Shown one piece after another: positions 38-27,100 of a stretch of 32,000 nt of DNA. The DNA lies in contig NZ_JHUX01000003.1 in NCBI RefSeq assembly GCF_000619845.1, positions 1,150,064 to 1,182,063 on the forward strand. Direction: 5' to 3'. The notes under the pieces are model-generated. The model was not told where the DNA came from. It worked only from the letters and a program-made list of their open reading frames with translations, and did no database searches. Each line of letters starts with the position of its first letter. The stretch's first letter is position 1. This stretch comes from Alkanindiges illinoisensis DSM 15370 (GTDB taxonomy: Bacteria; Pseudomonadota; Gammaproteobacteria; Pseudomonadales; Moraxellaceae). The translations under genes were made by a program, and so were the position numbers.

Positions 38-2257
38 ATGAGCGAGACTTCTCAACTGGTGATGGATCAGGCCGTAGAATCACTGCTGGATCGTGTTCCC
101 AATCCTTGTGTAGGCGAAGAACTAAGCCGGGTGGAAGGCCCACTTAAAGTGAGTGGCTGGGCAACTTATGCGGCTGAATATACGTTTGATGGTGAAGCAT
201 TGCATGGTTATCTGGTGAGTGCCAGCATTGCCAAAGGTACAGTGGAATCCATTGATGAGAGCAGCGCAACTGCAATTGATGGCGTGGTGGCTGTTATCAC
301 TGACTTTAAGGCGTTTATTCGCAACTCGCAGCAGGGCGGTGAGAAAAAAGCACCCACGCAGGGGGTTAAGGAAATTTCCTACTTTGGTCAGCCGATTGCA
401 CTGGTGGTGGCAACCTCGTTTGAGGCAGCGCGTGAAGGCGCAGCAGCCCTTAAAGTGCACTATACCCATGAACAGGGCGCATTTGACTTTATTGCCGAGC
501 TTGGCAAGCGTGAACCGATTACTTCTGGCAATGACAAGCCCGAGCATAAAAACAACCCGGATGAAGGCTTGGCCACTGCAGCAGTTAAGGTAGATTCCAT
601 TTATATAACGCCTAGCCAGAACAGTGCTGCCATGGAACCGCATGCCACCATTGCCGAGTGGGATGGCGATCAGCTTATCCTGCACTGCTCCATGCAAATG
701 CTATCATCCTGCAAGCAGCAGATTTGTGATGCTTTGGGTTTAAAACCGGATAATGTCCGCCTGATTTCACGTTATGTGGGTGGCGGGTTTGGTTCCAAAC
801 TGGGTATCTCGCCCGAATCGATTGCTGCTGCAATTGCTGCCAAACAGCTTCAGCGCCGCATTAAAGTGGTGATGCACCGGATTCAGGTATTTGAAAGTAC
901 TGTGCGTCGTACCAATACCCATCAGCGCGTGGCACTGGGCGCTGATCATAATGGACGCATTCATACCATAATCCATAACACGATTTGCACCAATTTGCCC
1001 GGTGAAACATTTTTTGAGCCCACGGCTATTTCCACCCATTTTGCCTATAGCGGCCAAAACCGGGAAGTTAAATATGAAATGGTGCGCATGAATCAGGTAT
1101 TAGCAGGTTCCATGCGCGCACCCGGTGAAGCAGTGGGCATGCTGGCGCTGGAATGTGCGATGGATGAACTGGCCGAAAAACTGGACATGGACCCGGTAGA
1201 GTTGCGCAAACTCAATGACCCGGCCATAGACCCCAGTAAGGGACTTCCCTTTTCTACCCGCAAACTAACTGACACACTGGATTATGGTGCCAAACATTTT
1301 GGCTGGGAAAAACGGCATAAACAACCAGCCAGCCAGCGTGAAGGTGACTGGCTGATAGGCATGGGCATGGCTTCGGCCACCCGCAGCAACCAGCTTAAGG
1401 CATCGGCGGCGCGCGTGACCCTGACACCGGATGCAAAGGCCGTTGTTGAAACGGATATGACCGATATTGGTACTGGCACTTATACCGTGTTAACCCAGAT
1501 TGCCGCTGACATGCTGGGGTTACCTGTATCGCAGGTTGACGTTCGGCTGGGCGATACCGATTTTCCACCGGCTGCCGGTTCAGGTGGTAGCGTTGGCGCC
1601 TGTAGCTCGGGTAGCTCGGTTTATCTGGCCTGTCAAGAAATTCGTGCAACACTGGCAAAAGCGCTGGGTGTTGAAGAAGACAACTTAACCCTGCAAGCCG
1701 GACAAGCCAGCGGCAATGGCATGAGCAAGGCAATTTCCGAACTGATTCAGGAAAATATTGTGGCCATGGGCCAGATTGAACCCGGCAAAACCAGCAAGGA
1801 ATACACTCAGGCCAGTTATGGGGCACATTTTGCCGAAGTGGCCGTTAATGTGGTGACAGGTGAAACCCGGATTCGCCGCATGCTGGGCGTGTTTGCAGCC
1901 GGACGCATTCTCAATGAAAAAACTGCACGCTCGCAATGTTATGGCGGTATGATTTTTGGCATTGGTGCAGCACTCATGGAAGAACTCCTGCATGACCCGC
2001 ACAATGGCCGTCTGGTCAATCATGACCTTGCAGAGTATCACGTGCCGGTCAATGCGGACATTCCTCCGATTGATGTGGTGTTTTTGCCCGAACGTGACCC
2101 TTATGCCAACCCTCTGCATGCCAAGGGCTTGGGCGAACTGGGGATTTCTGGCGCAGGTGCGGCGATTGCCAATGCGATTTATAACGCAACCGGTATCCGC
2201 ATTTATGACTATCCGCTCACACTGGACAAGCTGCTTGATCAGCTTCCTGCCATTTAA
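38..2257 (+). CDS. paoC: Xanthine dehydrogenase/aldehyde oxidoreductase family, molybdopterin-binding large subunit (PaoC/YagR-like)
   Basis: 739-aa ORF with a GGGAGA Shine-Dalgarno a few nt before ATG38. Family motifs present: MEPHA, GGGFGSK, VETDMTDIGTGTYT, AAGSGGS, KTARSQ and C-terminal DYPLTLDKLLDQLP. Collinear, from memory, with E. coli PaoC. The small 2Fe-2S and FAD subunits would lie upstream of the window. Confidence 0.85.
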   Translation: MSETSQLVMDQAVESLLDRVPNPCVGEELSRVEGPLKVSGWATYAAEYTFDGEALHGYLVSASIAKGTVESIDESSATAIDGVVAVITDFKAFIRNSQQGGEKKAPTQGVKEISYFGQPIALVVATSFEAAREGAAALKVHYTHEQGAFDFIAELGKREPITSGNDKPEHKNNPDEGLATAAVKVDSIYITPSQNSAAMEPHATIAEWDGDQLILHCSMQMLSSCKQQICDALGLKPDNVRLISRYVGGGFGSKLGISPESIAAAIAAKQLQRRIKVVMHRIQVFESTVRRTNTHQRVALGADHNGRIHTIIHNTICTNLPGETFFEPTAISTHFAYSGQNREVKYEMVRMNQVLAGSMRAPGEAVGMLALECAMDELAEKLDMDPVELRKLNDPAIDPSKGLPFSTRKLTDTLDYGAKHFGWEKRHKQPASQREGDWLIGMGMASATRSNQLKASAARVTLTPDAKAVVETDMTDIGTGTYTVLTQIAADMLGLPVSQVDVRLGDTDFPPAAGSGGSVGACSSGSSVYLACQEIRATLAKALGVEEDNLTLQAGQASGNGMSKAISELIQENIVAMGQIEPGKTSKEYTQASYGAHFAEVAVNVVTGETRIRRMLGVFAAGRILNEKTARSQCYGGMIFGIGAALMEELLHDPHNGRLVNHDLAEYHVPVNADIPPIDVVFLPERDPYANPLHAKGLGELGISGAGAAIANAIYNATGIRIYDYPLTLDKLLDQLPAI

Positions 2258-2292
2258 GTGCTTACTTCATTTCAAGCCAAAGGAGTAATGCC

Positions 2293-3555
2293 ATGAGCCA
2301 GTTGACTGCCCTGCTTCATGCCATTGATCAGGCACAGCGCCAGCAGGATGATGCTGTCATGGCCACAGTAGTGCAGGTGGAAGGCTCGGCCTACCGGCGT
2401 CCCGGTGCCCGTATGCTGATCTGGTCACATGGTCAGCCTGTGGGCACGATTAGCGGCGGCTGCCTTGAAAACGAAGCCTGTAAAAAAGCCCAGTGGCTGA
2501 CCCGAAATGCCCAGCCAGCATTACAGCGTTATCATACTGGTCATGCCGATTTTTACACTGATCCTGATGCTTATGCCAAAACTCAGGGTGTTCATGATCA
2601 TCATGGAAATGACATTGAAGCTGATGACGATGAAGCCCTTGCTTTTGGGCTAGGTTGCAATGGCACAGTCAGCGTTTTGTTTGAACGCCTGAATAGCCCA
2701 GCCATGCTTGCTGTTAGCCAGTTATTGCGTCATGTGCAGGCCAGTCACCGTGCTGGCGTGATTGCTACTGTCATTAGCACTCAGCCAAGCACTGGTAAAG
2801 AAACCAGCTTGCAACTGGGCGACCGTTTGCTGCTTGATCCAGTACAGCATGAATTACGCTGGATTATCCAAACCAATAGTCCAGTTGATAGCAACCTACA
2901 TCAAACGCTGCATAACGATGTGATTTTTACCCTCACCCGGCAAAAAAGCCTGCATCAGACCTATCAAACGGCACAGGGTAGTATTCAGGTATTTCTGGAA
3001 TACGTGGCCCCGCCCAACCGGCTGGTGATTTTTGGAGCAGGTCACGATGCGCAGCCACTGGTGAGCATGGCAAAAATGCAGGGCTGGCATGTGAGCGTGA
3101 TTGACAGCAGGCCGCACTTTGCCCGTAGGGAACGCTTTATGGACGCTGACCATGTGCGCTGTATTGACTTAAAAGCTGTTGATTTAAAGGACACAGCTGC
3201 TTTGGCTGAATTAACCAATCTCACCAATGGTGCGGCAGTTGCCATTATGAGTCATAGTCTGGCGCAGGATCGTCAGTGGTTAAAACAAATGTTGCTCAAT
3301 CCACCACGTTATATTGGCCAGCTTGGGCCGCGTTACCGCACCGAACGCCTAATTGCCGAAATTCAGCAAAGTTTGTCTGACCCTACCCAGATTGACCAAG
3401 GTCTGGAAGCCTTACATTACCCGATTGGACTGGATATTGGCGGTGATACGCCCGAAGCCATTGCATTGGCAATTATGGCAGAAATTACGGCTACCCTGAA
3501 CCAGCGTAGCGGCAAAATGTTAAAACAGCGTGACTTATCCATTCATGCTGAATAA
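2293..3555 (+). CDS. XdhC/CoxI-family molybdenum cofactor insertion chaperone (PaoD-like)
   Basis: 420-aa ORF with an AAGGAG SD. The N-terminal XdhC_CoxI-type segment is ATVVQVEGSAYRRPGARM...GTISGGCLE. The C-terminal Rossmann-like segment is RLVIFGAGHDAQPLV. It lies directly downstream of the molybdoenzyme gene. Confidence 0.85.
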   Translation: MSQLTALLHAIDQAQRQQDDAVMATVVQVEGSAYRRPGARMLIWSHGQPVGTISGGCLENEACKKAQWLTRNAQPALQRYHTGHADFYTDPDAYAKTQGVHDHHGNDIEADDDEALAFGLGCNGTVSVLFERLNSPAMLAVSQLLRHVQASHRAGVIATVISTQPSTGKETSLQLGDRLLLDPVQHELRWIIQTNSPVDSNLHQTLHNDVIFTLTRQKSLHQTYQTAQGSIQVFLEYVAPPNRLVIFGAGHDAQPLVSMAKMQGWHVSVIDSRPHFARRERFMDADHVRCIDLKAVDLKDTAALAELTNLTNGAAVAIMSHSLAQDRQWLKQMLLNPPRYIGQLGPRYRTERLIAEIQQSLSDPTQIDQGLEALHYPIGLDIGGDTPEAIALAIMAEITATLNQRSGKMLKQRDLSIHAE

Positions 3556-4195
3556 CCAGTTTTCCCAACATGCAGAAACACAAATTTCAACCAATACAGA
3601 TGTTTTACCTCATCTGGCAGTGTTAATTCTGGCAGCTGGTTTAAGCCGCCGTTTAGGACAACCCAAGCAATTATTACTAAAAAATGGTAAGCCGCTGGTT
3701 CGTCATGTGGCCGAACTTGCAATTTCCTTAAATCCACAATGCGTTATGGTCGTTGCTAATCACACCGTGGAGATTTCTTCTTTGCTTGAAGATTTGCCCA
3801 TCCAGCTTGTACTCAACCCGCAAGCCGATACAGGCATGGCAAGCTCATTACAGACGGGTGCCCTCTGTCTAAACAACCATCATGGGCAAGTATTGATTGT
3901 TGGGATTGATCAGCCCTTGCTGGATGCAGCTTATTTGCAGCGAATGGTTCAGCAAAATATCCAGTATCCGGACATGAATATCGTGAGCCAATATAGTGAC
4001 ACCATCGGCATTCCTGCCATCGTGCAGCCAGAATTATTGCAGCAAAGTGAGAGTTTGGCAGGTGATAGCGGCCTAAAAAAACTGCTGATGCAGCAACCTG
4101 ATAAAATAATAAAAATGCCTGCCCCCCAGCTTGCCTTCGATATTGATACCCCTGAGGCATTGCAGCATACCCGGCAAAATGGCTGGATTGATTAA
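3545..4195 (+). CDS. MobA-like NTP transferase (molybdenum cofactor cytidylyltransferase MocA-like)
   Basis: N-terminal LAVLILAAGLSRRLGQPKQLL nucleotide-binding loop typical of the MobA/MocA family. ATG 3545 overlaps the xdhC stop by 11 nt; the ORF-track start at 3530 is GTG. The context with PaoC/XdhC fits MCD cofactor synthesis. Confidence 0.75.
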   Translation: MLNNQFSQHAETQISTNTDVLPHLAVLILAAGLSRRLGQPKQLLLKNGKPLVRHVAELAISLNPQCVMVVANHTVEISSLLEDLPIQLVLNPQADTGMASSLQTGALCLNNHHGQVLIVGIDQPLLDAAYLQRMVQQNIQYPDMNIVSQYSDTIGIPAIVQPELLQQSESLAGDSGLKKLLMQQPDKIIKMPAPQLAFDIDTPEALQHTRQNGWID

Positions 4196-4219
4196 ACGCT
4201 TATCTACTTACTAATTTTT

Positions 4220-4684
4220 CTATAGCAACACTTTATGCATCAATGCATTGGACAAGGCAATACCACGTACCACGGGCATTTGCTGCTGCACAATGAAAAA
4301 ACCGAAATGCTGAAAAAATGGTTGCGCGCTAATACTGACATTTGAGGTTAGCAGTGGCATGCGATTCAGCCCTGCCTGTTTCAATAAATGCTGCATTAAA
4401 TATGCACCAACGCCTTGTCGGGGGAACTGTGCGGATACAAAAAACTGGTCGATATAGCCATTGTCCTGCAAATCAGCAAAGGCAACAGGCTGGCCTTGTT
4501 GCTCTACCACAAAAGGCTTGTTTTTAATAAGACGCGCTGTCCATGCGTGCTCGTCATAATCAAGCGGCGCCCAAGCATTGCACTGCTCAGCACTATAATC
4601 CCTGCTGGCAACCTGATGCACTGCCTCATAAAAGATAGTGTACAAAGCCTGTGCATCAGCGGGCTGAAAGTCACGAATTTTCAT
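4220..4684 (-). CDS. GNAT family N-acetyltransferase
   Basis: 154-aa ORF with the acetyl-CoA-binding motif A, FVSAQFPRQGVGAYLMQHLL (R/Q-x-x-G-x-G/A), and overall GNAT length. Confidence 0.8.
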   Translation of the reverse strand: MKIRDFQPADAQALYTIFYEAVHQVASRDYSAEQCNAWAPLDYDEHAWTARLIKNKPFVVEQQGQPVAFADLQDNGYIDQFFVSAQFPRQGVGAYLMQHLLKQAGLNRMPLLTSNVSISAQPFFQHFGFFIVQQQMPVVRGIALSNALMHKVLL

Positions 4685-4733
4685 AGGTTTTAATCACTGC
4701 CCTAAAAGCCATTTTGGATAATTTAAATATAGT

Positions 4734-5063
4734 TTAATCAACTCTTTTCGTTCCTATTTTCAAGTTCCATATGACGTTGCAATGTTTGCATTTTGCCATC
4801 CAGATTTGCTGCGTATTATTTTTTTGAGTAGTCGTTGGGCCGCCACAATTGGGGCAAATTATATGAAAAAGCTGATAATAGCCATAACCCAGAATAAATA
4901 CAGTGAAAACACCAAAGCCAACCGCAAGCGTCCAACCCAGCATAATATAGTGATGTTTAAGGCTATATAAACTGCTTACAAACAAACCCGTATCAATGAG
5001 CCATGCCCAAATAAACAAGCGCTGAAAATTTGCAGCAAAGCTGGGATGATCTTGTATAGTCAT
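4734..5063 (-). CDS. Hypothetical membrane protein: two TM helices plus a C-terminal CxxC...CxxC zinc ribbon (cassette gene C)
   Basis: 109-aa ORF with hydrophobic segments LFIWAWLIDTGLFVSSLYSL and IMLGWTLAVGFGVFTVFILGYGYY, followed by CPNCGG-(17 aa)-CKHCN. Its ATG overlaps the upstream gene's TGA (ATGA at 5060-5063). The gene is AT-rich relative to its neighbours. Confidence 0.6.
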   Translation of the reverse strand: MTIQDHPSFAANFQRLFIWAWLIDTGLFVSSLYSLKHHYIMLGWTLAVGFGVFTVFILGYGYYQLFHIICPNCGGPTTTQKNNTQQIWMAKCKHCNVIWNLKIGTKRVD

Positions 5064-5449
5064 AATAGAGTGATCCAGCTTTTATAATCCATGGGATTGA
5101 TCTTAAAAACTTCTACAGGTCTTACTGCCGTATAAGACACCCACTGGTCTGGGGCAATTAGTTGAAATGAGGTTGAAGGTAACTTGTAAATATAACCAAT
5201 TTTTTGCCAGTCAATTAAAGTGTCTTTTAACTGGATAATCGGTGGATTCATATCAGTATTCACTGAAAACACGGCAGTATCAGATTGAGCTGTTAAACTA
5301 AGCGCAAAGGCAACCGCTAACTCATAGCGTGCGACTGCATAAACAGCACTTTCATTGTCACCTGCCCCGCTAAAGCCGGTTGCCTGAGTAGGTTTTAATA
5401 CCTCAAGCTGTTTGGGCGAACCATGATAAAGATAATCCGGCTTTTGCAT
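5060..5449 (-). CDS. Hypothetical soluble protein with an N-terminal YLYHGSP motif (cassette gene B)
   Basis: An ORF open from GTG 5488. I prefer ATG 5449 (129 aa, MQKPDYLYHGSP...) because it leaves a 22-nt spacer after gene A and does not rely on a GTG lacking an SD. No TM segments. Translationally coupled to gene C. Confidence 0.55.
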   Translation of the reverse strand: MQKPDYLYHGSPKQLEVLKPTQATGFSGAGDNESAVYAVARYELAVAFALSLTAQSDTAVFSVNTDMNPPIIQLKDTLIDWQKIGYIYKLPSTSFQLIAPDQWVSYTAVRPVEVFKINPMDYKSWITLL

Positions 5450-5471
5450 ATTAACTTCTACACACTGATCC

Positions 5472-5966
5472 TTAGAGATCACTAACACGAATTTGACTAA
5501 AGCGCTTTAGCCCCAGCACGCCACATATCAAACCAAAGAGCCAGATATAAACTTCGAGCCAGTTCTTTAAAGGGTCTTTATCAATGATCGCTAATTCTGG
5601 TTGATCGGCTGCATAAATCACAGGCACAGTCGCCTGCAAATGCTGAATGTCATGGCCAAAATGATCGATAAACCGGACAGGTTTTTTATCTACTATAAAT
5701 TCAACGATTGGCAATTGTGTGGTGACAACCCTGCCGCCTGTACTACTGTGCTGATGCCAGCTTGTTGGCTGATACCCCACAATAATACCTTGCGTTACAG
5801 CGTCATTAACCCAGAGCGGATAAATGCGTTTGATCGCATGCGTTAAACCAATTGCACAAAAAATCAGGCATGCCAAGGACAAATACTTGAGTACTCTCAA
5901 GATGATCTGAAACAGCTTTTGGGGTTGATCAACAATAGACCGTAAGGAAGCGTAAAGGTCAGCCAT
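5472..5966 (-). CDS. Hypothetical membrane protein, DUF3592-like architecture: TM, beta-rich domain, TM (cassette gene A)
   Basis: 164 aa from ATG 5966; the ORF-track start at 6038 is TTG and lies upstream of the putative promoter. TM1 is LSLACLIFCAIGLTHAI and TM2 is WLEVYIWLFGLICGVLGL. They flank GIIVGYQP...LPIVEFIVDKKPVRF...VPVIYAADQPELAII, which matches my recollection of the DUF3592 pattern. Confidence 0.6.
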   Translation of the reverse strand: MADLYASLRSIVDQPQKLFQIILRVLKYLSLACLIFCAIGLTHAIKRIYPLWVNDAVTQGIIVGYQPTSWHQHSSTGGRVVTTQLPIVEFIVDKKPVRFIDHFGHDIQHLQATVPVIYAADQPELAIIDKDPLKNWLEVYIWLFGLICGVLGLKRFSQIRVSDL

Positions 5967-5975
5967 GCAATAACC

Positions 5976-6015
5976 TGCTGTTATAATTTTAATCCTGGCA
6001 AAAATTATAACAGCA
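5976..6015. promoter_or_regulatory. 15-bp perfect inverted repeat (TGCTGTTATAATTTT / AAAATTATAACAGCA, 10-nt spacer) carrying a TGnTATAAT extended -10 element on each strand
   Basis: Read directly: 5976-5990 is the reverse complement of 6001-6015. On the minus strand the right arm reads TGCTGTTATAAT about 40 nt upstream of the gene A ATG (5966). No U-run follows, so it is not a canonical intrinsic terminator for xerC. Confidence 0.55.
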
Positions 6016-6079
6016 AGCTCATTACCATAAGCTGCCAATTATTTTGATTTTTCAAAAAAATCTTAGGTATGGCTGTGCT

Positions 6080-7054
6080 TTAGGATGATTTCTTGCGCGC
6101 CCGTGGATGGGCACTGTCATAGACTTTGGCCAGATGCGCAAAATCCAGATGGGTATAAATTTGCGTGGTGCTAATGTCGGCATGGCCTAGCAACTCCTGC
6201 ACCGCACGCAAATCACCACTACTGGCCAGCAAATGCGATGCAAAACAATGCCGCAACAAATGCGGATGCAAATGCTGACTAATGCCAGCCCGTTCAGCCT
6301 GCAAACTTACTCGGCGTTCAATCTGACGGGTGCTCAAGCCCTTACCAGAACGCTCACTTACAAAAATCGCATCCTCTTCAGGTGCAACCCAGCTATTGCG
6401 TAATTGCAGCCAGGCTTGCAGCGCTTCAATGGCCTTGCTACCCACTGGCACCACGCGGGTTTTATTGCCCTTACCAACAACAGACACCAGCCCACGCGCC
6501 AGATCCAGTTGCGTTAAAGTCAGTTTGGCCAGCTCAGACAAGCGCAAACCACTGCTGTAAAACAGCTCCAGAATGGCTTTATCCCGACACCACAGTTGTG
6601 CATCACGCTCCTTTTCTGGTGCTACCTGATCCAGAATCTGCGGCATGATTTCCGCATCCAGCATACCGGGCAACGGCCGGTTAGGCCGCTGAATGGCAAA
6701 ATCAAGGGCAAAATTTTGCGCAATAATTTCCTGCTCAACCAGCCAGTCGGCAAAGCTGCGTACCGCTGATAGCTCGCGTTGCAGGCTGCTGCTGGAAATG
6801 CGGTCTACTTCAATGCGCTGGGCAGCAAACTGGCGCAAGGTATGATGCGTGACTTGCTGTAAGGCAACGGATTTACAGGACAAAAATACCGTAAATTGCA
6901 ACAGGTCACGCTGATAGGCTTTTCGCGTATGAAAAGACAGGTTCATGCGGATTAAGGCTTGCATCCATTGCTGCACAAGCTCCGACAGATTGTCCTGTAC
7001 AGAAGAATTTTCAGGCTGATCTGTTTCTGAAAAACTTAAATCCTGCTGGGTCAC
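6080..7054 (-). CDS. xerC: Tyrosine recombinase XerC
   Basis: 324-aa ORF with the tyrosine-recombinase catalytic signature: GLRLSEL (Arg), HLLRHCFASHLL (H-x-x-R) and LLGHADISTTQIYTHL (His/Tyr). It sits in the conserved position downstream of dapF. Confidence 0.9.
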   Translation of the reverse strand: MTQQDLSFSETDQPENSSVQDNLSELVQQWMQALIRMNLSFHTRKAYQRDLLQFTVFLSCKSVALQQVTHHTLRQFAAQRIEVDRISSSSLQRELSAVRSFADWLVEQEIIAQNFALDFAIQRPNRPLPGMLDAEIMPQILDQVAPEKERDAQLWCRDKAILELFYSSGLRLSELAKLTLTQLDLARGLVSVVGKGNKTRVVPVGSKAIEALQAWLQLRNSWVAPEEDAIFVSERSGKGLSTRQIERRVSLQAERAGISQHLHPHLLRHCFASHLLASSGDLRAVQELLGHADISTTQIYTHLDFAHLAKVYDSAHPRARKKSS

Positions 7055-7171
7055 TCAGTTATCCTTAAAAAAGCCCTGTTACGAAACTATAAAGAATCCC
7101 TCTTGCAAAGCAGTGTCTATCATCCCACTGGCCAAAAGAAATTATAAGAGTTTCGCAAGAAATCTAGAGAA

Positions 7172-8047
7172 TTACTGCTCCTCGTTTTGCTCAGGAACAT
7201 AGAAGTCATAGGGATTAAAAGTGCCTTCAAAGGTGGTTGCTGTTGGCCCTGTCATCCATACTACTTCATTGGGTTGCCACTGGATTAATAAAGGGCCGCC
7301 CGCCAGATAAACACGAACTTCCGGGTCAAGCAGGCCACGGCGAATCCCGCTCACTGCTGCTGCACAGGCGCCAGTACCACAGGCCAGTGTTTCGCCCACG
7401 CCACGCTCAAACACCCGTAGGCGCACCTCGCCCCGGTTAATAATCTGCATAAAGCCCACATTCACCCGTTGCGGAAAACGCGCATGCGATTCCAGCGCTG
7501 GCCCAAGTTTTTCGACAGGTGCTGTCAATACATCATCCACCAGCAGCACCGCATGCGGATTGCCCATATTCACCACGTCCAGCGCTACCGTTTGACCCAA
7601 TACATCTACTGCATAGCTATCTGGCAACTGCTCGCTCTGTTTTTCAACTTTAAACGGAATATCGTCCGGCAAAAAACGCGGCTCACCCATATTGACGCGC
7701 ACCCAGGCATTGCTGTTAATTTCCGGCTCGACCACACCACTGTTGGTTTCGACCCGGATTTTGGCTTTTTTGGTTAAGTGACGTTCATGCACAAAGCGGG
7801 CAAAACAGCGCACGCCATTGCCACACTGCTCTACTTCCGATCCATCGGCATTAAAAATACGGTATTTAAAATCCACATCGGGCCGCTCAGGAGCTTCCAC
7901 AATCAGCATCTGGTCAAAGCCGATGCCAAAATTGCGGTGTGCCAACCGGCGAATTAGCTCAGGATGCAGCGGCATGCGCTGGGTGACCAGATCGATCACC
8001 ATAAAGTCATTGCCCAGACCATGCATCTTGCTAAATTGAATCCGCAT
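7172..8047 (-). CDS. dapF: Diaminopimelate epimerase
   Basis: [20 protein letters not shown]-terminus. Catalytic Cys motifs are CGNGVRCF and ACGTGACA. The start was refined to ATG 8047, which has a GGAG SD about 10 nt upstream; the ORF-track start at 8074 adds 9 unlikely residues. Confidence 0.95.
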
Positions 8048-8092
8048 TATGTTCTCCGTTTGGTATTGCCGCATTCATTCTTTAAAAAGCCG

Positions 8093-9340
8093 TTATTCAG
8101 GCAGGCAGCTTTCCAGTTGCCACAGGTCTTGCAGGGTTTCACGCTGACGCACCACATGCACGTCACTGCCATCGACCATGATTTCAGCCGCACGCGGGCG
8201 AGTGTTGTAGTTACTGCTCATCACAAAACCATATGCCCCGGCACCCATCACGGCCAGCACATCGCCTTCCTGCAAGGATAGCTCTCGCTCTTTACCTAAA
8301 AAATCCCCGGTTTCACAAATGGAACCCACCAGATCCCACTGCTTGCTATCTTGCTCGCGTGGTGCTGCAACCGGCACAATATTCATCCAGGCCTGATATA
8401 GCGACGGACGGATCAGGTCATTCATGGCTGCATCGATCACCGCAAAATTACGGTGCGCGGTAGGCTTTAGCAAATCCACAGTCGTCAGCAACACTCCGGC
8501 ATTGGCACTAATCGCGCGGCCTGGTTCCATATATACTTTCAGGCCCAGCTTGGTTAATGCAGGTTGCAGGCTTTTAGCATATTCGGCAGGTGTTGGCGGG
8601 GTTTCATCGTTATAGCGCACGCCAAGACCGCCGCCAATATCAATATGCTTAAGGTGAATACCCTGCGCTTTCAACTGTTCAATCATTTGTATGATTTTGT
8701 CCAGCGCGTCCACAAAAGGCTGGGTGGTGGTGAGCTGCGAACCAATATGGCAATCAATGCCAACCACATCCAGACCTTGCAGGCTGGCAGCATATTGATA
8801 GGTGTCATACACGGTGTCGCTGGGCACGCCAAACTTGTTTTCTTTGAGACCCGTGGAAATATACGGATGAGTTTGCGCATCCACATCAGGATTAACCCGT
8901 AAGGACACTGGCGCCTTTACGCCCAGACGCTGTGCTACGCCGTCAATGCGGGCCAGTTCGGCATAGGATTCTACATTAAAACAGGCAATACCGACTTTGA
9001 GCGCTTGTTCAATTTCACCTTCAGTTTTACCAAGGCCAGAAAAAACCACCTTGGCCGGATTGCCACCTGCAGCAAGTACACGCGCCAGCTCGCCACCACT
9101 GACAATATCAAAGCCTGCACCCAGACGCGCCAGAACATTCAACACCCCAATATTGGAGTTGGCCTTGACCGCAAAACACACCTGATGGTCAATAAAGGCG
9201 AACGCTTTATCAAAGGCTGTATAGTGCTGCTCGAGGGCAGCCCGTGAATAAACATATAGCGGGGTGCCGTGGGCTTTTGCAATTTCTGCCAGTGATACCT
9301 GCTCGGCATGCAAAATGCCTGCAATACGCTCAAAACTCAT
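8093..9340 (-). CDS. lysA: Diaminopimelate decarboxylase
   Basis: 415-aa ORF with PLP-Lys motif CFAVKANSN, HIDIGGGLG, EPGRAI and GSICETGD, typical of the Orn/DAP/Arg decarboxylase family 2. Adjacent to dapF. Confidence 0.95.
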   Translation of the reverse strand: MSFERIAGILHAEQVSLAEIAKAHGTPLYVYSRAALEQHYTAFDKAFAFIDHQVCFAVKANSNIGVLNVLARLGAGFDIVSGGELARVLAAGGNPAKVVFSGLGKTEGEIEQALKVGIACFNVESYAELARIDGVAQRLGVKAPVSLRVNPDVDAQTHPYISTGLKENKFGVPSDTVYDTYQYAASLQGLDVVGIDCHIGSQLTTTQPFVDALDKIIQMIEQLKAQGIHLKHIDIGGGLGVRYNDETPPTPAEYAKSLQPALTKLGLKVYMEPGRAISANAGVLLTTVDLLKPTAHRNFAVIDAAMNDLIRPSLYQAWMNIVPVAAPREQDSKQWDLVGSICETGDFLGKERELSLQEGDVLAVMGAGAYGFVMSSNYNTRPRAAEIMVDGSDVHVVRQRETLQDLWQLESCLPE

Positions 9341-17988: not shown

Positions 17989-18570
17989 TTAAATTGTTTT
18001 GGCCCATATACCAAGATCAGCAACATAATAGGTATGCGTATCGGCTACTTCAAAGTTATAAACTATGCAGGTATAGGGCTGTCCGTGATCCTTATACCAG
18101 CCAAGATAAGTTTCCCGATAAGGTACTCCAGTGTCACGTTGTCGCATCACACCCGGGGTTAAATCCACATCAACAATGCTTACGCCTTCATCATCTCCAT
18201 ATTCATTAAAGCGAATAGTCCAGCCACTTAAGTCACAGGGGAAATGATAAATAGGACGGGCTGCGGTAAACATTCCTCCCCCATTGTCATAAAGTTTAGC
18301 TAATCGTCCATCAGCAAGCTCAAAGGAATCACTCTCTCTTAGGTCCTCAGCCTGATCCAGCACTTCTTTCAAGATGCATTTAACTAGGCGTACAGGCTCA
18401 TTGTCCGTTTTAACTGTTCTGACCACAGGCTTGTAAACTTGCGCCCCAATACCATTTTCAGGTTTGGACAAGACCCTATCGCCAACTTCTATCTGTTCAA
18501 TGGGGACTAAACCTTGATCAGTATGAACCAGTGTCCCTGATGCAAAACCACTTTCTATTTCTAATGTCAT
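17989..18570 (-). CDS. Stand-alone Hint (PT-HINT/bacterial intein-like) domain protein with degenerate catalytic termini
   Basis: 193-aa ORF. The N-terminal block GFASGTLVHTDQGLVPIEQIEVGDRVLS corresponds to Hint block A. The C-terminal block VYNFEVADTHTYYVADLGIWAKTI corresponds to Hint blocks F/G. An in-frame TGA lies 18 codons upstream of the ATG, so there is no N-extein, and the stop falls 2 codons after the Hint end. The gene is AT-rich relative to its neighbours. Confidence 0.7.
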   Translation of the reverse strand: MTLEIESGFASGTLVHTDQGLVPIEQIEVGDRVLSKPENGIGAQVYKPVVRTVKTDNEPVRLVKCILKEVLDQAEDLRESDSFELADGRLAKLYDNGGGMFTAARPIYHFPCDLSGWTIRFNEYGDDEGVSIVDVDLTPGVMRQRDTGVPYRETYLGWYKDHGQPYTCIVYNFEVADTHTYYVADLGIWAKTI

Positions 18571-22707: not shown

Positions 22708-23427
22708 ATGGCTAAGCTCTTTAAAGTTTTTGCATTTTCTACTTTAGCGCTTTCTTTTGAGGTGCTTTCGCTTCAGGCTGCTTATGCCGAAGATACCATT
22801 TACACTTGGACTGATGAGCAGGAATCATTAACCAATTATGGTGGTATTCCGCCAGAGGAAGAACTGGGTTCCGACGCTGTTAAAGTGATTGACCTGCAAA
22901 AAGGTATTACCACCAAGGTTGATTTTCCAGCCCGTGCAGTGGATGCAGCCGCTGAAAAAAACAAACAGCAGCTTAAGCCACCTGCTGGCTATCCTGCGGC
23001 AGCTATTTCCGCAATAAATCCCAATGCTCCTACGGAAGCAGCTACGCCTGCAACCAGCAGTGCTCCTAAAATGCTGGGTTCTTCAACGCCTGTACCGCCT
23101 CCTAGCAATACCGATCAAGCTAAACCTGCTGCACAGTCCGGCATGTTGGCCTCAGGCAAAGCCAGTTCGTTTATTAATGAGGAAGAAGCCAAAAAGCTGA
23201 GTGAACAGGAAAATAAACTGGAAGAACAGGCCAAAAGTGCACGCCGTATTGCCCTTGAAAAACGACGTGATGAAATGAAAGCGCTGGCAGAACGTGTGCG
23301 TAATGGTGCAGCATCACGACAGGAAATTGCAGCCCTGATGACCTATCGCCAGACAGCCTCTTTTGGTGAAGCCCGTAGCGCACTGGCACGGCCTAAAACA
23401 GCTAAAAAAGTTGAGCTAAATGATTAA
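22708..23427 (+). CDS. Secreted DUF4124-like protein with Pro/Ala-rich linker and charged coiled-coil C-terminus
   Basis: Signal peptide (FAFSTLALSFEVLSLQAAYA), followed by TIYTWTDEQESLTNYGGIPP, which resembles the DUF4124 Y-x-W-x-D...PP motif. Confidence 0.65.
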   Translation: MAKLFKVFAFSTLALSFEVLSLQAAYAEDTIYTWTDEQESLTNYGGIPPEEELGSDAVKVIDLQKGITTKVDFPARAVDAAAEKNKQQLKPPAGYPAAAISAINPNAPTEAATPATSSAPKMLGSSTPVPPPSNTDQAKPAAQSGMLASGKASSFINEEEAKKLSEQENKLEEQAKSARRIALEKRRDEMKALAERVRNGAASRQEIAALMTYRQTASFGEARSALARPKTAKKVELND

Positions 23428-23495
23428 ATTTTAATATCAATAAAATAGGATTTAGGCGTCAGTTTTGATCCGGTTTATTGATGCAGTTACAGCAT

Positions 23496-23526
23496 AAAAA
23501 ATGCCTCCTGTGTGGAGGCATTTTTT
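23496..23526. terminator. Bidirectional Rho-independent terminator between the DUF4124-like gene and tkt
   Basis: ATGCCTCC-tgtgt-GGAGGCAT, a perfect 8-bp stem flanked by A5 and T6 runs between convergent genes. Confidence 0.85.
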
Positions 23527-23551
23527 ATATTAATCACTTGCAGAAGATGAA

Positions 23552-27056: not shown

Positions 27057-27100
27057 ATAAAAAAGCCGCGCAACCTTCAAAGAAAATAGCGCGGCTTTTT
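27057..27100. terminator. Bidirectional Rho-independent terminator between metK and the acidic-protein gene
   Basis: AGCCGCGC-(17-nt loop)-GCGCGGCT, a perfect 8-bp GC-rich stem flanked by A-run and T-run. Confidence 0.8.

Follow-up and report, generated by a model that had tools for sequence, protein, structure and literature searches.

A 32-kb stretch of DNA from Alkanindiges illinoisensis (Moraxellaceae), hereafter referred to as the window (32,000 nucleotides at its full length), carries three small minus-strand genes that lie between a xerC-type recombinase gene on one side and a gene of the GNAT acetyltransferase family on the other. The question raised by this locus is whether these three open reading frames (ORFs), labelled A, B and C throughout (Table 1), constitute an undescribed three-gene system, as had been proposed from the letters of the window alone (the sequence-only reading). 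The comparison with sister genomes and outgroups gave the following answer: (i) the site holds an accessory islet that is specific to the genus Alkanindiges, and not a conserved three-gene system, (ii) B is the constant element of the islet and forms with C a coupled pair that is conserved in the genus, and A is optional, and (iii) the product of B belongs, with good but not complete confidence, to the ADP-ribosyltransferase (ART) superfamily as judged by its predicted fold and its motifs.

Gene content and age of the xerC/GNAT junction

The window was compared with loci of A. illinoisensis NFYY 23406 (one contig, L011), A. hydrocarboniclasticus H1 (genome, L012) and metagenomic assemblies. 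Among the loci reaching xerC, the junction was found to hold three arrangements: A-B-C as in the window (L006, L011); a gene for a soluble orphan protein of 364 amino acids (aa), unrelated to A, in its place, followed by B-C (L004, L005, L009, L010, L012, L024-L026); and B only, abutting the GNAT gene at a distance of 6 nucleotides (nt), with A and C absent (L001-L003). The 364-aa gene (2460-3554 in L004 and 6821-7915 in L012; present also in L024 and L025) encodes a protein for which no relative was found in Pfam, PADLOC or the PDB sequences. B occupied the xerC/GNAT junction in every recovered Alkanindiges locus with readable flanks. The stop codon of B and the start codon of C overlap as ATGA in the window and likewise in L004, L009 and L011, and to judge from this overlap the translation of C is coupled to that of B in all loci that have C.

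The layout described in the sequence-only reading was recovered, i.e., three minus-strand ORFs with a spacer of 22 nt between the stop codon of A and the ATG of B and with the ATGA overlap between B and C, placed after the lptM-lysA-dapF-xerC run (xerC was confirmed by its domains, and the gene order was also present in L001, L002 and L024). The further claim that A-B-C are packed as one unit did not hold across the genus, where A is replaced or absent and where C is missing in L001-L003, and the comparison of the junction in sister genomes, which had been suggested as a check, revealed the three arrangements given above and not a constant A-B-C. Since the same reading had made its proposal depend on A, B and C being conserved as neighbours, and since this co-conservation failed in sister genomes as well as in outgroups, the proposal of an undescribed three-gene system was given up. 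The locus is a caution for genome scanning, as a tidy AT-rich cassette of overlapping genes in membrane/soluble/membrane order ceased to look like a system on comparison with sister genomes.

A, B and C are nevertheless genuine, constrained genes, because their ratios of nonsynonymous to synonymous substitution rates (dN/dS) against orthologues were low (A 0.24, B 0.11-0.24, C 0.15-0.23; 0.12 for the adjoining GNAT gene). Between the window and H1-type loci, the synonymous divergence (dS) was 0.76 for B and 0.69 for C, compared with 0.79-0.85 for the GNAT gene and 0.63-0.75 for mobA and xdhC. Because the dS of B and C matches that of the flanking GNAT, mobA and xdhC genes, the islet is by this measure an old resident and not a recent import. 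Horizontal acquisition as a recent event, which had been suggested by the base composition, was therefore rejected: from the window to H1-type loci, B and C have diverged to much the same degree as their flanks, and B is found at the same junction in every recovered Alkanindiges locus with readable flanks. Neither flanking direct repeats nor a tRNA-type insertion signature were found around the cassette.

The guanine-plus-cytosine (GC) content of the cassette is 41.2% (A 43.4%, B 40.8%, C 38.5%). The window as a whole has 48.0% and lysA has 51.7%, which amounts to a contrast of about 7-10 points. The GC dip noted earlier was thus reproduced, whereas the value of 55-58% given for lysA, and with it a gap of about 15 points, was not. 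The GC content at third codon positions (GC3) of the genes at 17989-18570 and 22708-23427 of the window (0.34 and 0.35) is as low as that of the cassette, so low GC3 is not peculiar to A-B-C within the window.

The flanks of the islet are mosaic. When window positions 2293-9340 were compared with L001, L011 and L012, L001 was near L012 for dapF and xerC (dS 0.10-0.15), and on the GNAT/mobA/xdhC side it was near L011 (dS 0.11-0.29) with L012 being distant (0.8-0.9). As the flanks of L001 match different loci on each side, a recombination breakpoint is placed at the islet. The B allele of L001 has a dS of about 1.4 from all other alleles at a dN/dS of 0.14, as opposed to a dS of 0.1-0.5 in its flanks. 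On these divergences the junction marks a boundary of recombination, and divergent alleles are located at it.

Repeat elements were also observed at this position. An insertion sequence (IS) of the IS1595 family is located at the islet in L004 (1709-2432) and L005, upstream of the 364-aa gene; it encodes a 221-aa transposase (DDE_Tnp_IS1595) and has 18-nt terminal inverted repeats (ggctctagactagcagag / ctctgctagtctagagcc), and in L004 xerC lies on its far side. Contig L011 is without xerC and stops directly before A, in a short element with inverted repeats (L011 1-100; aggactagag...ctctagtcct), a sign that this junction may hold a repeat or IS there as well.

Gene B and its ADP-ribosyltransferase-like family

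For gene B the gene callers choose a GTG start at position 5488, giving 142 aa; the ATG used here (5449) agrees with the N-termini of the outgroup homologues. A word-indexed homologue search with A, B and C retrieved Alkanindiges sequences only. An exhaustive HMMER profile search (E<=1e-3) yielded a B family of 240 clusters with members of mostly 125-160 aa, and the conservation and Pfam counts given here are based on 50 of its members.

The hypothesis that B resembles Arr and other ARTs of the H-Y-[EDQ] type was drawn from motifs alone, ahead of the structure search. In H-Y-[EDQ] ARTs the HG[ST] and Y-A-[TS] motifs hold NAD+. The motifs of B are LYHGS (residues 7-11), VYAV (36-39; family consensus AVYA[TS]), GYIY (85-88), F95, Q96 and Q102-W103, and those near-invariant in the family are LYHGS, P-x-QA, AVYA[TS], FAL, GYLY, an invariant Phe and Q/E-W. 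The strand-1 His motif (H-G-[ST]), located at the end of the model strand 6-11, consists of H9 and G10 (49/50 each) and S11 (45/50); the strand-2 Tyr motif, within the model strand 34-39, consists of Y37 (46/50, the other four having F), A38 (47/50) and T/S39 (35/50). F95 was conserved in all 50 members, and so was Q or E at position 102 (Q in 46 and E in 4). The H, G, S and Y residues of these motifs are intact in the B of the window. HGS and Y-[FL]-[AST] are tabulated as PARP motifs (PMC7955679).

The AlphaFold model of B, built from an alignment of 50 sequences, had a pLDDT (predicted local distance difference test) of 94.5, while an alignment of five close sequences gave a pLDDT of 37. A Foldseek search with the model against 350,542 PDB chains, as had been recommended in the sequence-only reading, placed Arr at ranks 1-3 (2hw2, 9iaf and 9iba with probabilities of 0.96, 0.66 and 0.63, respectively), with matches below significance, and PARP16 at rank 24. 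The search of BFVD returned two significant matches to unnamed proteins (E 1e-5 and 6e-5), and its top 26 matches included four annotated as ARTs (Rifampin ART, PARP catalytic domain, ART-PolyVal and PARP). B has no hydrophobic segments, and together with the ART-like fold and motifs this agrees with its earlier description as a small soluble putative enzyme.

Scans of A, B and C against NCBIfam, PHROGs and Pfam gave sub-threshold matches only. The sequence-level relatives of the B family are found in DUF6886 (PF21820), which was matched by 31 of the 50 members at E<=10 and by five at E<=0.01 (best 1.8e-7), with one match spanning model positions 1-123. Members of the B family are about 40 residues shorter than the DUF6886 model, and the B of the window stays under the cut-off (13.4 bits as opposed to 27; E 0.058, model positions 89-123 of 164); the kinship of the two families is thus one of superfamily rank only. 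Weak matches to DUF3990 (6/50) and ART-PolyVal (2/50) were also obtained; DUF3990 is named as an ART-clan family, and ART-PolyVal is taken as a known ART domain set (PMC7955679).

Arr (Pfam Arr-ms; PDB 2HW2, 9IAF, 9IBA) resembles B in being a single-domain ART of about 130-150 aa without accessory domains. Both have an HG[ST] close to the N-terminus, an aromatic Y-x-[ST] in the core strand that comes next, and F-[EQ] after a GY[IL]Y strand. The gene of Arr is typically solitary, as are those of the B family. In a single pre-specified hhalign comparison with Arr-2, the GYIY...F-[EQ] of B came to lie opposite the GYIY...F-E-D-D of Arr (P 0.003, probability 10%). Unlike Arr, B is without the D-D-P-N segment and without significant similarity to Arr in sequence, the TM-scores of its model with the Arr structures reach no more than 0.38-0.44, none of the 50 members matched Pfam Arr-ms even at E<=10, and nothing points to rifamycins as the substrate of B. 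B is consequently not assigned to the Arr family. Judged by the model, the B family represents uncharacterised small proteins with a predicted ART-like fold that are distant relatives of DUF6886, with Arr as their closest solved structure. The ART assignment of this DUF6886-related family may be unreported, DUF6886 being unmentioned in the literature searched.

Outside the genus, a small outgroup sample was inspected that consisted of ten loci (L013-L022, with six different B homologues) and an Acinetobacter contig (L023). The closest non-Alkanindiges homologues of B (35-53% identity) were solitary genes amid unrelated housekeeping or small-enzyme genes, including MAPEG/GATase, HAD/GrpB/GNAT, metG/rnfA-like, GFA-like and fadH genes, and no A-like or C-like neighbour of a B homologue was found in the eleven loci. 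A plasmid collection searched by tblastn with B gave no match, and nothing was found in the metagenome scans. The Acinetobacter contig (CAKLQF020000021.1) is recorded as 'Acinetobacter phage MD-2021a' and carries fadH, nlpA, a tRNA-Ser gene and a solitary B homologue of 37% identity. Phage-borne B homologues were rejected, the 'phage' records being apparently mislabelled contigs of the Acinetobacter chromosome.

Putative function of the islet

The explanation that we favour, with a confidence that lies a little above an even chance and that extends to its mechanism, is an islet with a stand-alone Arr-like ART-fold enzyme, B, coupled to the genus-specific membrane zinc-ribbon protein C. B would bind NAD+ and transfer ADP-ribose to a target; as in the case of Arr, this target would most likely be a small molecule or a xenobiotic, and not a macromolecule of the host. 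B would perhaps act jointly with the downstream GNAT acetyltransferase. C, with two transmembrane (TM) segments and a presumed cytoplasmic zinc ribbon, and A would be lineage-specific membrane partners that perhaps tether or regulate B, and the palindrome upstream of A, with its embedded extended -10 element, would drive the A-type islet.

A small-molecule target is suggested because the homologues of B are solitary, because members of the family are fused to NUDIX, GNAT, ANT-like and kinase-like domains, and because a GNAT gene is adjacent both here and in L016, where it lies directly downstream of the B homologue. The fusions comprised NUDIX (three cases), GNAT (two cases, one in each order, P0036 and P0058) and an ANT(9)/AadA-like nucleotidyltransferase, and further P-loop kinase-like, DUF402, MA peptidase and LexA/MarR-type winged helix-turn-helix domains; a fusion to HD was indicated by a weak match under the cut-off (E 0.0058). 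Such a context matches an enzyme that modifies small molecules or nucleotides, not a secreted or abortive toxin. In all Alkanindiges arrangements with a contig extending to the downstream flank, B is followed by a GNAT gene, which is a possible operon or functional partner of B.

If the approximately 240 clusters are active ADP-ribosyltransferases, they would form a second family of minimal ARTs of the size of Arr, and the above would be the first functional hypothesis for DUF6886-type proteins. Arr is a clinically relevant antibiotic-inactivating enzyme, and a sister family of it would be a place to seek unrecognised modification of small molecules or antibiotics; such a search is sensible because of the GNAT, ANT-like, kinase-like and NUDIX fusions and because the genes mostly stand alone.

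Several observations weigh against an Arr-like enzyme. The similarity of the B model to solved ARTs is weak (E 0.07-0.3 and TM-score 0.36-0.44; 0.07 and 0.44 for 2hw2), profile searches of the PDB sequences with alignments of 50 and 99 sequences retrieved neither Arr nor any other ART, and hhalign of the B family with Arr-2 gave a non-significant probability of 7-10%. The third catalytic residue has two candidates, position 96 (at the start of strand 96-99; E in 24/50 and Q in 8/50), where hhalign sets F95-Q96 against the F-E-D-D of Arr-2 without significance, and Q102 (at the start of strand 102-105), and the B of the Alkanindiges clade has Q96 and A99 as opposed to E and D in the family consensus. 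Because of these replacements the B of Alkanindiges could be a weak or non-catalytic member of its family. GNAT genes are very common, which makes their adjacency weak evidence. Finally, B was found to be inactivated in two lineages. In L001-L003 codon 8 of B is changed from TAT to a TAG stop codon, and in the H1 lineage B is frameshifted by a change of GC to TTT, which leaves a 97-aa allele (L012 8195-8200, L024 3560-3853 and L027 87-380; i.e., H1, one JGI contig and one Logan assembly). A sequencing error as the cause of the H1 frameshift was rejected, the same 97-aa allele being present in two further independent assemblies. Since the allele is shared by independent assemblies while otherwise identical intact alleles occur in four others (L009, L010, L025 and L026), the frameshift is a real, segregating loss-of-function polymorphism. 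The inactivation of B in two lineages fits a dispensable or costly gene and also the pattern of a toxin.

DarT, ParT and Tre1 are toxins of the ART fold, which is common among toxins, and B-C could accordingly be a toxin/immunity pair in which B would ADP-ribosylate a host macromolecule, C would neutralise or trigger it at the membrane and the first gene would be a sensor or accessory. We consider such a pair unlikely. Like DarT-DarG, ParT-ParS and Tre1-Tri1, B-C includes a small ART-fold protein in a tight gene pair at a variable locus, which is here AT-rich and has divergent alleles such as that of L001, and the conserved 4-nt overlap of B and C points to stoichiometric co-expression. The two independent losses of B function agree with a toxin as well, and none of the Alkanindiges contigs that show C to be absent carried an intact B; B was, however, also broken in some genomes in which C is intact. 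Unlike the partners in the three known pairs, C is a two-TM zinc-ribbon protein and not a macrodomain, Xre-type or ARH-type antitoxin, and neither a macrodomain nor a DNA-binding antitoxin was found. The B-C pair is confined to one genus, beyond which neither C nor A was found, and the B homologues elsewhere are solitary, so the B family would not be generally toxic without a partner. The defence scan (PADLOC-DB 2.0) gave no match for A, C, the 364-aa protein, the GNAT protein or the B homologues, and for B only a non-significant one to GajB (E 0.039, 10.2 bits), in agreement with the earlier statement that A, B and C correspond to no named toxin-antitoxin or phage-defence family. The domains fused to B homologues belong to small-molecule or nucleotide enzymes and are not trafficking or sensor domains. 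Likewise, the setting of a conflict module or defence island, as envisaged before, was not borne out, since the neighbourhood is a housekeeping one with lysA-dapF-xerC on one flank and the GNAT gene and a molybdenum-hydroxylase maturation cluster on the other.

The inactivation of B could also mean that the genes have no joint function, being unrelated accessory genes in a recombination-prone slot, with the Alkanindiges B as a degenerate ART fold, e.g., a ligand-binding remnant. The swapped first gene, the occasional absence of C, the repeated inactivation of B, the clade-specific Q96/A99 in place of the consensus E/D, the recombination breakpoint in the flanks at the islet, and the IS1595 and another inverted-repeat element at the junction in relatives are consistent with this explanation. 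It nevertheless appears improbable to us, as purifying selection on A, B and C is as strong as that on the GNAT gene, the H, G, S and Y motif residues have remained intact in the window, the ATGA coupling of B and C has been kept across species at a dS of about 0.7, and the B allele of L001 evolved at its low dN/dS until its recent stop codon. Very doubtful, finally, is the furthest-reaching version of a toxin/immunity pair, in which an undescribed ART toxin and a membrane zinc-ribbon immunity or trigger protein, with an interchangeable upstream specificity gene, ancient recombining alleles and recurrent toxin inactivation, would make up a polymorphic conflict locus private to Alkanindiges.

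Membrane proteins, palindrome and flanking genes

The genes of the islet, the palindrome upstream of A and the two adjoining genes are listed in Table 1.

Table 1. Features at the xerC/GNAT junction of the window (positions refer to the 32-kb window).
Feature	Position	Strand	Description
Gene A	5472-5966	-	164 aa, ATG start; two hydrophobic segments around a beta-rich DUF3592-like domain
Gene B	5060-5449	-	129 aa from ATG; soluble, predicted ADP-ribosyltransferase-like fold
Gene C	4734-5063	-	109 aa; two hydrophobic segments and a C-terminal zinc ribbon
Inverted repeat	5976-6015		Candidate promoter/operator for A-B-C(-GNAT)
GNAT acetyltransferase	4220-4684	-	Acetyltransf_10, PRK09831-like (Pfam, NCBIfam); 49 nt past C
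xerC-type tyrosine recombinase	6080-7054	-	Phage_integrase and Phage_int_SAM_1; upstream flank, outside the islet

Hydropathy was calculated according to Kyte-Doolittle with a window of 17 residues, and the maxima agreed with the two TM segments previously assigned to each of A and C. For both A and C, NCBI has a protein of Alkanindiges illinoisensis with 100% identity. The maxima of A, whose hydrophobic segments are N- and C-terminal, were 2.19 and 1.77. The beta-rich DUF3592-like domain ascribed to A gave a weak match under the cut-off (E 9e-4, 20.3 bits as opposed to 25.3; model positions 1-82 of 84), and a 91% identical orthologue is named 'DUF3592 domain-containing protein' at NCBI. Homologues of A were found only in A. 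illinoisensis-type loci. In the order of an N-terminal TM segment, a beta-rich domain and a C-terminal TM segment, A is like DUF3592 membrane proteins, of which some of unclear function adjoin LXG toxins (PMC12482557); unlike in those cases, the present locus encodes no toxin bearing a trafficking domain, and A is dispensable for B-C.

For C the hydropathy maxima were 1.64 and 1.96 (segments at about residues 16-32 and 40-62). The zinc ribbon described earlier was recognised as CPNC-x18-CKHC, which matched many zinc-ribbon models weakly, and both of its Cys pairs were retained in L009, L011 and L012. As in DUF2614/PRK02935 (YgzB-type) proteins, the CxxC...CxxC ribbon of C comes after two TM segments, and the matches of C to these models (E 0.054 and 0.0095, respectively) span the TM region and the ribbon, with a score far under the cut-off (15.8 as opposed to 108 bits). 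Homologues of C were found only in Alkanindiges.

The palindrome consists of two 15-nt arms (5976-5990 and 6001-6015) that are 100% complementary and separated by a 10-nt spacer, and it is located 10 nt upstream of the start codon of A. Perfect repeats with arms of at least 12 nt occurred three times in the 32 kb, compared with 0.03 expected from Markov shuffles. On the minus strand the upstream arm of the palindrome contains TGTTATAAT (6012-6004), which corresponds to an extended -10 element (TGnTATAAT). The palindrome was found alongside A in L011 and L006, where one of its arms has a single uncompensated mismatch, and is absent where A is absent. A search of the locus against Rfam, palindrome included, gave no family. 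The palindrome is likely the promoter/operator of the A-type islet; this role is read from the extended -10 element by itself, because a consensus promoter scan found no -35/-10 pair at the palindrome. The earlier description as a palindromic promoter/operator-like element is thereby confirmed as to the palindrome, and its regulatory part is kept as a probable one.

No terminator-like site was detected between C and the GNAT gene. Past the GNAT gene, window positions 38-4195 on the opposite strand hold the end of a molybdenum-hydroxylase cluster with a 739-aa large subunit, an XdhC/CoxI-type maturation protein and a MobA-like nucleoside triphosphate transferase, which was kept in every Alkanindiges locus reaching that far. 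The two other perfect repeats of the window are located at 23494-23528 and 27060-27100 (ATAAAAAATGCCTCC/GGAGGCATTTTTTAT and AAAAAGCCGCGC/GCGCGGCTTTTT, respectively) and look like bidirectional intrinsic terminators.

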